DNA of 32,000 bases from Candidatus Thorarchaeota archaeon (lineage in GTDB: Archaea > Asgardarchaeota > Thorarchaeia > Thorarchaeales > Thorarchaeaceae), in contig PRDJ01000063.1 of the NCBI GenBank assembly GCA_003345555.1, positions 11,519 through 43,518 of the forward strand, read 5' to 3'. Shown here piece by piece: positions 29,046 through 31,868 of the stretch. The translations under genes and the position numbers were made by a program. The stretch's first letter is position 1. Every line of letters begins with the position of its first letter. The notes below the pieces were generated by a model that made no database searches, had not been told where the DNA came from, and was given only the letters and a program-made list of their open reading frames with translations.

Positions 29046-29054
29046 GTGGTAGCG

Positions 29055-29711
29055 ATGACAGAAGAGGAGAAAACTGAGCAAACACCAGCCCCTGAGGCTC
29101 CAGTCCCACGTACCGTTCCCAGATTGCTGCTATTCGGCAGATGGGATTCAACCGAAGTCCAGGTCAAGGATGTCGGGCTTCAGAGATACATAACGCTGAA
29201 GCCGGTCTTGATACCGCATACGTCGGGCCGGCATGCGGGCAAACGATTCCATAAGTCGACCGTGCCTATTGTTGAAAGGTTCGTGAACAAGGTTCTCAAC
29301 GCGGGAGATCGGCATGAGAAGAAGACACGAACTGGCAAGAATGCTGGCAAGAAAGTCAGAGCAATCGGTTTCGTCCGTCGTGTGTTTGAGATGATTGACT
29401 TCAGGACCGGAATGAATCCGATACAGGTGTTGGTTACCGCAGTGGAGAACGCAGCTCCTGCTGAAGAGACCACTCGTATCTCATATGGTGGTATGGCCTA
29501 TCCTCGTTCTGTCGATATTGGCCCGCAACGAAGAGTGGACCTTGCGTTGAGGCATATCATGGTTGGAGCTGTTAGGGCATCACACAACAGTGCAAAGTCA
29601 CTCGAAGAATGTATCGTTGACGAAATCCTACTTGCTTACAAAGGCGATGCCGGAAGCTTCGCAGTTGCAAGGAAGGAAGAGCGCGAGAGAATAGCACGAT
29701 CCGCAAGGTAG
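29055..29711 (+). CDS. rps7: 30S ribosomal protein uS7
   Basis: LFGRWD, PHTSGRHA.KRF.KS.VPIVER, NPIQVLV.AVENAAP.EETTRI and ERIARSAR. ATG 29055 follows AGGTGG; GTG 29046 is an alternative start. Confidence 0.98.
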   Translation: MTEEEKTEQTPAPEAPVPRTVPRLLLFGRWDSTEVQVKDVGLQRYITLKPVLIPHTSGRHAGKRFHKSTVPIVERFVNKVLNAGDRHEKKTRTGKNAGKKVRAIGFVRRVFEMIDFRTGMNPIQVLVTAVENAAPAEETTRISYGGMAYPRSVDIGPQRRVDLALRHIMVGAVRASHNSAKSLEECIVDEILLAYKGDAGSFAVARKEERERIARSAR

Positions 29712-29849
29712 GGGAAACCAGTCTTCAACTTTGCTGTGCGCGGCAACTCCTAGGGCTGTATTTCCGAACAGAAGTGCAAACGTTTTCAGAGCCCCGACCT
29801 GCAGTGCCGTATGGCGTGGATTCTTGTCTCACGAGAGGCGATTCATCAG

Positions 29850-30356
29850 TTGACGGCACCGATAGCGAGAGTAAGGAAGTACGAGTCCGAAGACGAGCAT
29901 CAGGTCGTTCGGCTCATTGCTGAGTTCAGAATAGCGCTGGATACTCTGAAGCAGTCAGGTGTTCTCCCGAACGATGATTCAGCAAGACAGGAACTGCACG
30001 AATACCTAGGTAAGGGATTTCCAATTCTCGTGGCGATAGATGATAAGAAGAAGATTCTTGGCTATGTAGTGTGTCGGGTTGACGAAGATGTGGTTTGGGC
30101 CGAGTCACTATTCGTATCTCCGCGCGCTCGAAGGAGGGGGATAGGCTCGCTATTGTACTCTGAAGCGGAACATCTAGTAGAGTCGTTAGGCGGGGGCACG
30201 GTTTACAATTGGGTTCATCCGAATAACAACGTCATCATCTCGTTCCTTCGAAAGCGGGGCTATTGTGTGCTCAATCTGGTCGAGATTCGCAGACCCAGAA
30301 AAGGTGAGAGACTAACAACCAAGGTCCAAGTTGGCGAGTACGAATTCGACTACTGA
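29850..30356 (+). CDS. GNAT family N-acetyltransferase
   Basis: Acetyl-CoA motif A (LFVSPRARRRGIGSLL) and motif B (VHPNN....FLRKRGY). Probable TTG 29850; the ORF is open from ATG 29811. Confidence 0.9.
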   Translation: MTAPIARVRKYESEDEHQVVRLIAEFRIALDTLKQSGVLPNDDSARQELHEYLGKGFPILVAIDDKKKILGYVVCRVDEDVVWAESLFVSPRARRRGIGSLLYSEAEHLVESLGGGTVYNWVHPNNNVIISFLRKRGYCVLNLVEIRRPRKGERLTTKVQVGEYEFDY

Positions 30357-30370
30357 TTGATTCCGTAAGC

Positions 30371-30376
30371 TTTAAA
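30371..30376 (+). promoter_or_regulatory. Probable TATA box for EF-1alpha
   Basis: TTTAAA preceded by TAAGC, about 55 nt upstream of TTG 30432. SD-like GAGGT lies at 30420..30424. Confidence 0.55.
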
Positions 30377-30431
30377 GACACACCAGCCCTTTCGCGCTTA
30401 GTTTAACCTAGTCTGAGTTGAGGTTAGCACA

Positions 30432-31868
30432 TTGAGTAAAAAAGAAGCAAAGCCCGCAGCGGAAAAGGCAAAGCCCGCAGCGGAAAAGGCAAAGCCTGCA
30501 GCCGAAAAGAAGGCTGGAGCAGCACCCGCACCGGCGGCCGCTCCTGCTGCAGCGGGTAAAGAAAAGGGAAAGGAGCACCTCAACCTCGTCGTGATTGGAC
30601 ACATAGATCACGGGAAGAGCACACTCACTGGGCGACTTCTCTACGAGGCCGGTGCCCTTGACGAGAGGACAGTCGCAGCCAACAAGGCCGAAGCGGAACG
30701 CCTTGGTCGTCCTGAACAGGCGTGGGCCTTCGCACTGGACCGTCTAAAGGAAGAGCGAGAGCGTGGCATCACTATTGATATCGCGTTCTTCAAATTCATG
30801 ACACCAAAGTACTACTACACAGTCATTGACGCACCGGGCCACAGGGACTTCGTCAAGAACATGATAACAGGCGCATCGCAAGCGGATGTCGCCATGCTGG
30901 TCGTGTCTGCCAAGACTGGTGAGTTCGAGGCAGGCGTTGGTGTCGGCGGTCAGACCAAAGAACATGCATATCTTGCAATGACACTGGGTGTTCCTAGTCT
31001 TATTGTCTGCATCAACAAGATGGATGAAGTCAAGTACAGTGAAGCTCGATACAAGGAAGTTAAGGAAGAAGTCGGTGGCTTCCTTAAGAGCATTGGCTAC
31101 AAGATTGAACAAGTCCCGTTCATTCCAACATCTGCACTAGAGGCTGTCAATCTGAAGGCTAAGACCCCTGCCAAGACCCCATGGTACACTGGACCATGCT
31201 TACTTGAGGCTCTCGACGCCGTAACACCTCCACCAAAGCCTCTCGACAAGCCATTGCGAGTGCCAATCAACGACGTTTACTCGATCAAGGGAGTTGGCAC
31301 AGTACCAGTGGGTCGTGTCGAGACCGGTGTGATGAAGCCTGGGCAGAAGATTACCTTCATGCCTGCCAACAAGTCTGGTGAAGTGAAGTCAATTGAGATG
31401 CACCACGAGCAGCTGACCCAGGCGGTACCTGGTGACAACATCGGGTTCAACGTCCGAGGCATCGAACGGAAGGACCTGACTCGAGGAGATGTTGCCGGAC
31501 CAGCCGAGAAGCCACCTACAGTCGCACAGGACTTTCAAGGCCAAGTGATGGTCATCCAGCATCCGACAGCTATCACGGTGGGTTACACCCCAGTCGTGCA
31601 TGCTCACACAGCCCAAGTAGCCTGCAGATTTGACCAGATCACCAAGAAGATAGACCAGCGTACAGGACAGGTCATTCAGGAGAACCCCGAATTCGTGAAG
31701 AGGGGTGAGAGTATGATTGCTAAGCTCGTGCCACTCAAGCCCTTGGCAATCGAGAAGTACAAGGATCTCCCGCAGCTGGGAAGATTCGCAGTGCGTGACA
31801 TGGGCATAACGGTGGCTGTCGGAATCGTTCTCGACATCACCCCAAGAGACATGAGCACTGTCAAGTAG
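30432..31868 (+). CDS. tuf: Translation elongation factor aEF-1alpha with N-terminal Ala/Lys/Pro extension
   Basis: [54 protein letters not shown] and GRFAVRDMG. Confidence 0.98.
30447..30509 (+). repeat. Three tandem 21-bp coding units (AKPAAEK x3)
   Basis: GCAAAGCCCGCAGCGGAAAAG occurs twice identically; the third copy has two synonymous changes. Confidence 0.97.

Follow-up and report, generated by a model that had tools for sequence, protein, structure and literature searches.

A genus-specific, predicted-disordered Ala/Pro/Lys/Glu-rich insertion near the N-terminus of a Thorarchaeota elongation factor EF-1alpha

EF-1alpha is among the most conserved of proteins, and its N-terminus is normally fixed within a few residues. 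Here we describe a Thorarchaeota genus in which the only EF-1alpha gene carries 41 additional codons, predicted to encode a disordered tail, between the fifth residue of the protein and its otherwise canonical core. The tail contains apparently recent tandem repeats, differs in architecture between species of the genus and has counterparts of similar composition on unrelated proteins encoded by the same genome. In the following, coordinates refer to the window, i.e., the whole stretch of 32,000 nucleotides that was analyzed. Where genomes have to be told apart, G000 denotes the present genome, G003 and G001 two genomes of the same genus, and P0001-P0004 variants recovered from a collection of 5.8 billion proteins.

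Identity and genomic context of the gene

The gene, its conserved core and its upstream neighbor are located as follows:

30432..31868, + strand: aEF-1alpha coding sequence, 478 aa plus the 3' stop codon (31866-31868); the sole copy in the genome
30570..31865, + strand: EF-1alpha core (G domain, domains 2 and 3), delimited by Pfam, profiles, alignment, AlphaFold2 and solved chains
29811-30356: GNAT acetyltransferase gene, between rps7 and EF-1alpha

The predicted product scores 660.5 bits against the NCBIfam EF-1alpha equivalog TIGR00483 (cut-off 540.1) and 682.7 against PRK12317 (cut-off 502), and displays the three-domain architecture formed by PF00009 (GTP_EFTU), PF03144 (D2) and PF03143/PF22594 (D3). 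The GTPase motifs G1-G5, including TSAL, are intact in the translation, and their key residues are invariant across an alignment of 30 sequences. Residues 47-473 (427 residues) can be aligned end to end with the solved structures 1JNY, 3VMF and 3WXM. The gene is single-copy in this genome (2.28 Mb in 82 contigs, 93% complete), the other match being a GTPase with 30% identity, and it is preceded by rps12, rps7 and the GNAT acetyltransferase gene, in that order; many archaea have EF-2 at the position occupied here by the GNAT gene. The sole copy, the gene order and the nesting of the protein within the Thorarchaeota EF-1alpha tree show that it is the orthologous elongation factor of the organism and not a paralogue. 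Both the TIGR00483 score above cut-off and this nesting bear out the initial annotation of the gene as an Asgard EF-1alpha. Delivery of aminoacyl-tRNA is its predicted function, going by family membership.

The product of rps7 in the same neighborhood (29046-29711; putative GTG start taken from the ORF list) features an apparent N-terminal stretch of ~30 residues rich in Glu, Pro, Ala and Thr, with the Pfam S7 domain beginning at residue 46.

Architecture of the insertion

The additional sequence and its parts are as follows:

30447..30569, + strand: Ala/Pro/Lys/Glu insertion of 41 codons, specific to the genus and flanked by the conserved MSKKE and KEHLNL; delimited by comparison with the family and other Asgard archaea; predicted disordered
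30447..30509, + strand: three tandem 21-bp units, each coding for AKPAAEK, detected by Tandem Repeats Finder
30510..30569, + strand: older part of the insertion, comprising a Lys, an Ala/Pro-rich spacer and GKEKG; common to both tail types, with changes, in the alignment of G000, G003, G001 and P0004

The initial annotation had described an N-terminal extension of ~45 residues. The extra tail is indeed present, but comparison with relatives refines its nature: since these begin with M-SKK(D/E)-KEHLNL, and the protein considered here retains the TTG, SKKE and KEHLNL of the family with 41 codons in between, the alignment indicates that the new material is an insertion after the conserved five-residue N-terminus (MSKKE) rather than a prefix. 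Tandem Repeats Finder reports a period of 21 with 3.0 copies, 95% matches and a score of 112 for 30447-30509. The first two units are identical and the third departs from them by CCC>CCT and GCG>GCC, both synonymous; the repeats thus look recent, as the annotation had suggested for its two identical units.

In the AlphaFold2 model, computed with a 30-sequence alignment, the core is confident and canonical, while residues 1-45 have pLDDT values of 27-32 and form no DSSP element. This agrees with the earlier proposal of a disordered tail, which the model predicts with pLDDT < 35 throughout residues 1-45. The other premise of that proposal, that canonical aEF1A and eEF1A proteins are free of such a tail, also held: the TIGR00483 profile match starts at residue 45, and the solved EF-1alpha chains, which like related proteins begin 2-7 residues before the first strand of the G domain, align from their own residue 2-7 with query residue 45-47 onward, with no counterpart of the tail aligned before chain residue 2-7.

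We also considered a source for the tail elsewhere in the genome. A blastn-short search of 30432-30575 against the whole genome returned only chance words of 13-19 nt; hence, copying of the tail from another gene, including the one for the Ala/Pro hinge of aP1, was rejected.

Start codon and translation of the tail

Upstream of the tail, the following elements were recognized:

30372..30377, + strand: TTTAAA, putative TATA box of the EF-1alpha promoter, 3' of the GNAT stop codon (30354-30356); read from the sequence
30420..30424, + strand: Shine-Dalgarno-like GAGGT, 7 nt 5' of the TTG; read from the sequence
30432..30434, + strand: TTG start codon, homologous to the EF-1alpha start codon of the family (mostly TTG)

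The strongest argument for translation of the tail is the homology of its start codon across the family. EF-1alpha begins with TTG in 15 of 19 genes from the other genera of the family, followed by SKK(D/E)KEHLNL, and these genera have a GGTG-type Shine-Dalgarno-like motif at a similar distance before the TTG. The three members of the genus that were compared all retain the same Shine-Dalgarno-like region, GAGTTGAGGT. An in-frame stop codon, TGA, lies upstream at 30414-30416 and leaves the TTG at 30432 as the sole start candidate after it. The next in-frame ATG, GTG or TTG is a GTG within the first strand of the G domain (LVVIGH), from which no working protein would be made because it lies inside that strand, and the near-cognate codons CTG, ATT, ATC, ATA and ACG are absent from the tail codons between 30435 and the G domain. 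Judged from this layout, translation must start at TTG 30432, so that the tail would be translated. The initial annotation had reached the same view from the GAGGT at 30420-30424, 7 nt before the TTG, and from the lack of in-frame ATG, GTG or TTG codons between the TTG and the G domain; both readings stood, and the conservation of the TTG, SKK and Shine-Dalgarno-like layout in the family adds to them. The 3' end of the 16S rRNA was looked for in the assembly for comparison with the anti-Shine-Dalgarno sequence and was not found. Further upstream, the block GATTCCGTAAG(C/G)TTTAAA surrounding the putative TATA box is kept in the three species of the genus, and the TTTAAA may act in the promoter of the gene.

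The variation in tail length points in the same direction: all five length differences among the variants (+3, -3, 12 nt between the two tail types, the 21-bp units and the 57-bp unit) are multiples of three, as expected if the tail is read through into an essential protein.

The use of TTG in most sister genera (loci L005-L022) is itself of note for a gene expressed as strongly as that of EF-1alpha. Gene callers have placed the EF-1alpha start too far upstream in at least two proteins in public collections (P0023 and P0055). A further observation concerns the Shine-Dalgarno-like region at 30417-30424, where GTTGAGGT is perfectly complementary to ACCTCAAC at 30577-30584, in the HLNL codons ~150 nt downstream. 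The two are paired in the minimum-free-energy fold; both sides are invariant in the genus and therefore offer no covariation. The overall fold of 30400-30600 is no better than that of shuffled sequences (z = -1.35, with 17 of 200 shuffles equally good), and the idea that the part of the gene encoding the tail forms an RNA structure or an intron was rejected.

Phyletic distribution and origin

Our survey of the phylum covered 400 Asgard genomes, 332 of them with a TIGR00483 match, and upstream frames were taken from the 150 matches listed. The tail was found in G000, G003 (96% identical), G001 (90%) and P0001-P0004, that is, in three GTDB species and metagenomic variants, all from one genus; nine samples yielded identical assemblies of P0004. 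No EF-1alpha match was obtained in the one remaining genome of the genus, which is 83% complete. Among the remaining Asgard EF-1alpha sequences that were retrieved, the G1 motif lies at residue 4-22, except for two mis-called starts, and wherever a long upstream open frame was seen in other Asgard genera (the family loci and 13 fetched among the listed matches), a normal start is present beside the core. A comparison of Asgard N-termini, as proposed by the initial annotation, places the tail in one genus, with all others checked starting beside the core. The tail peptide, used as a query in 25 relatives, matched only G000 and G003 and so does not serve to count similar tails in the others. We found no published description of an EF-1alpha tail in Thorarchaeota in the literature searched, of which coverage was partial.

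The tail comes in two architectures. Type I (G000, G003 and P0001) consists of three AKPAAEK-like units, the Ala/Pro spacer and GKEKG. Type II (G001, P0003 and P0004) consists of a 57-bp unit present twice, in nearly identical DNA, followed by the same junction as in type I. Thus, a comparison of repeats between relatives, also proposed in the initial annotation, uncovered both in-frame indels between G000 and G003 and a different repeat architecture in a sister species. The sequence preceding KEHLNL is 46 residues long in one architecture and 42 in the other, and its net charge is +5 or +6 in every variant. In a quick maximum-likelihood tree of the cores, the tail-bearing sequences form one clade (SH-aLRT 100), and its weakly supported sister group (81) is formed by two proteins whose insert at the site of the tail is 8 residues long. 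These patterns fit a single origin of the tail at the base of the genus, possibly after a short insert.

Selection on the exact sequence of the tail gives a mixed signal, while length, charge and composition are kept. By the Nei-Gojobori method, the tails of G000 and G003 differ by six synonymous and two non-synonymous changes (dN/dS ~0.1), and those of G001 and P0004 by no synonymous and five non-synonymous changes.

The GNAT gene was considered as a possible tail-specific modifier and rejected. In the species with the type II tail it has been reduced to a 55-residue C-terminal remnant (in a 65-aa ORF), and a genus that lacks the tail has a 53%-identical GNAT copy beside its EF-1alpha gene.

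Several further observations concern EF-1alpha elsewhere in the phylum. Two genomes of one sister genus have a second fragment of ~133 residues that matches only domain 3, with 75-77% identity, 3-5 kb downstream of the full gene (G004:C2:45160-45558 and G019:C30:10766-11167). A single in-frame TGA interrupts the EF-1alpha match in G012:C2:309671-311008 (L018), and likewise in G376 and G159; at L018 the frame stays open for just 104 codons after the start and the match is ~40 nt longer than usual, and the interruption could be an error, an insertion or a case of recoding. Finally, in the phylum survey at E <= 1e-120, TIGR00483 has no match in any of the 22 genomes of family f18 or the two of family f19, whereas nearly all other Asgard families match; these two families may have a divergent factor.

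Similar tails on unrelated proteins of the genus

When the whole genome was scanned for windows rich in Ala, Pro, Lys and Glu, 12 open frames were recovered. These include the ribosomal proteins L31e, L32e, uL18 and S25e and the usual hinge of aP1, as well as three enzymes with N-terminal tails, namely an acyl-CoA synthetase, a rubredoxin and a nitroreductase. Three of these are of particular relevance:

G000:C36:76576-78426 (L081:177-2027): acyl-CoA synthetase with a ~60-residue Lys/Pro/Ala N-terminal tail
G000:C12:11069-11377 (L082:270-578): rubredoxin with a ~50-residue Lys/Pro/Ala N-terminal tail
G000:C10:73393-73821 (L083:94-522, - strand): L31e with a ~55-residue acidic Glu/Ala/Pro-rich N-terminal tail

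The tail of the acyl-CoA synthetase shows 55% protein identity to that of EF-1alpha and no DNA similarity; it is present in the orthologues from the genus, and those from nine other Thorarchaeota genera and one further Asgard family start at the core. The rubredoxin tail is similarly confined to the genus, with orthologues from 12 or more other genera starting at the core. In contrast to the EF-1alpha tail, that of L31e is older and common to most genera of the family, and the nitroreductase tail is genus-specific only in part. Thus, at least three unrelated proteins appear to have gained similar cationic Ala/Pro tails in the genus, which, as a trend drawn from three proteins in the scan of one genome, points to a cause at the level of the lineage. 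Since the acyl-CoA synthetase and rubredoxin gained theirs in the same genus, a trend across the lineage, or a bulk property common to the tails, appears a more parsimonious reading than a tail function specific to EF-1alpha. The specific roles put forward in the initial annotation, in binding nucleic acid or the cytoskeleton or as a target of modification, accordingly found no support.

Possible explanations for the tail

We consider it probable that the tail is an insertion of one origin, rebuilt by in-frame tandem duplication and kept as a disordered cationic appendage for its bulk properties, in a genus with a tendency toward such tails. Under this explanation, the insertion would have arisen once, at the base of the genus, directly after the ancestral MSKKE. 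It has since been remodelled by in-frame tandem duplication, of 21-bp units in the present species and of a 57-bp unit in its sister, presumably via replication slippage or unequal recombination. The product would be a disordered appendage with a net positive charge (+5 or +6), attached to the G domain at its solvent-exposed N-terminus and retained not for its sequence but for its length (about 42-46 residues), its charge and the stiffness lent by Ala/Pro. The appendage would leave the core job of the factor unaltered and at most confer a weak, non-specific attraction to polyanions (tRNA, rRNA or the acidic tails of the stalk) or better solubility. The EF-1alpha tail would then be one case of a tendency of the genus to grow tails on unrelated cytosolic proteins, likely tolerated and perhaps mildly useful. 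EF-1alpha is among the most abundant proteins, and for this reason ~10% of extra length is costly; the persistence of the tail across a genus whose EF-1alpha cores differ by ~10% hints at more than passive tolerance.

The same persistence in a highly expressed protein could speak for a module dedicated to EF-1alpha, namely a cationic 'fly-casting' arm that would capture tRNA, rRNA or the acidic C-terminal tails of aP1 and thereby speed delivery of the ternary complex. Such an arm would have analogs in eukaryotic Lys- and Asp-tRNA synthetases, with their Lys-rich appendages at the N-terminus, and in the N-terminal region of bacterial IF2. The charge and the 42-46 residue length maintained in both repeat architectures and the dN/dS of ~0.1 in one species pair would suit an arm of this kind, as would the link drawn between Lys-rich low-complexity regions of translation proteins and nucleic-acid binding (PMC6821194). 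However, the rubredoxin and acyl-CoA synthetase, which have no RNA link, gained like tails in the genus; the sequence turns over fast, with only non-synonymous changes in the second species pair; and all other Asgard EF-1alpha genes checked manage without a tail. We therefore regard a dedicated arm as rather unlikely. The parallel acquisitions might instead be taken as a shared, genus-specific address or tether, in which a Lys-rich tip and an Ala/Pro spacer dock cytosolic proteins on an anionic scaffold, be it membrane, cytoskeleton, nucleic acid or condensate. Three unrelated proteins do have similar tails, each beginning M-x-K-K followed by Ala/Pro-rich stretches, and there are parallels in the Lys and Ala-Pro N-terminal arm of the myosin essential light chain, which contacts actin, and in eEF1A, which moonlights on actin. 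Nevertheless, the tails have no conserved motif beyond their composition, the initial MSKK of EF-1alpha is ancestral to the family and was not gained with the tail, and few proteins are involved, several of the 12 Ala/Pro/Lys/Glu-rich ORFs being ribosomal with older tails. A tether thus seems improbable, and the fuller claim, that the tails of EF-1alpha, acyl-CoA synthetase and rubredoxin make up a common tethering system on a single type of anionic scaffold (cytoskeleton, membrane or nucleic acid) and are not a product of drift, slightly more so. If true, it would mean that an Asgard archaeon has a simple way of localising its proteins, echoing the association of eEF1A with actin.

Two further possibilities were considered. 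The tail could be absent from the mature protein, through proteolysis, an unrecognised downstream initiation codon or an archaeal mRNA intron. We hold this to be distinctly improbable given that neither canonical starts nor CTG, ATT, ATC, ATA or ACG occur between 30435 and the G domain, that an intron would need neither the in-frame lengths nor the synonymous excess between G000 and G003, and that the fold of 30400-30600 (z = -1.35) does not exceed the shuffled background. Alternatively, the repeat could be an assembly artefact or a chimera, as the genome is a metagenome-assembled draft in 82 contigs. The 63-bp array is, however, shorter than a read, and independent assemblies agree, the three-unit structure recurring in an independent MAG and a separate ENA contig and the sister form being identical in nine samples, which makes an artefact very unlikely and the least credible of the alternatives.

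Comparison with known systems

Like canonical aEF1A (TIGR00483; 1JNY, 3VMF, 3WXM and 3WY9), the protein has three domains and the G motifs, is the sole copy and is encoded after rps12-rps7; it departs from this type by the 41 extra, predicted-disordered residues between its fifth residue and the first strand of the G domain. The eukaryotic EF-1alpha paralogues eRF3 and Hbs1 have long disordered N-terminal regions, and their partners are eRF1 and Dom34. They resemble the present protein in placing an EF-1alpha-type GTPase behind a low-complexity, charged, disordered N-terminal region, but they are separate paralogues, whereas it is the orthologous elongation factor with a much shorter tail. The match to HBS1L scores 363 bits against 576 for 1JNY, and the best solved matches are aEF1A proteins. 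Membership in the eRF3/Hbs1 subfamily was accordingly rejected, the protein being the sole copy and nested within Thorarchaeota EF-1alpha, and the comparison with these paralogues drawn in the initial annotation survives as an analogy only.

AlgP of Pseudomonas is a histone-H1-like protein with KPAA/AKP repeats. The tail resembles AlgP-type proteins and the arm of the myosin essential light chain in having a KPAA-type repeat, a positive net charge and an Ala/Pro spacer of extended form; the likeness is one of composition, and we found no homology or shared domain. Low-complexity regions rich in Ala, Glu and Lys recur in prokaryotic translation proteins, in a survey whose main text does not contain 'Elongation factor' (PMC6821194). 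The tails described there, such as the N-terminus of bacterial IF2 and those of ribosomal proteins (PMC6821194), are comparable in their Ala/Glu/Lys/Pro composition, terminal position and highly expressed hosts, and the present genome has tails of this sort on L31e, L32e, uL18 and S25e; in contrast, the EF-1alpha tail occurs in a single genus, where tandem duplication continues to remodel it. In eukaryotes the EF-1alpha N-terminus is accessible to modifying enzymes (PMC6109062). On these comparisons, the tail is best described as a genus-specific variant of a well-known protein and not as a new kind of system.

Implications

The sole EF-1alpha copy of this archaeon tolerates, and perhaps uses, ~10% of extra, predicted-disordered sequence at its N-terminus. 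It offers a dated example of how slippage would give rise to a low-complexity region in a core gene and then rework it, and it draws attention to a genus where similar tails appear to have been gained by several unrelated proteins. Annotation work and phylogenies that rely on EF-1alpha as a marker should allow for the insertion in this genus and for TTG start codons in Thorarchaeota.
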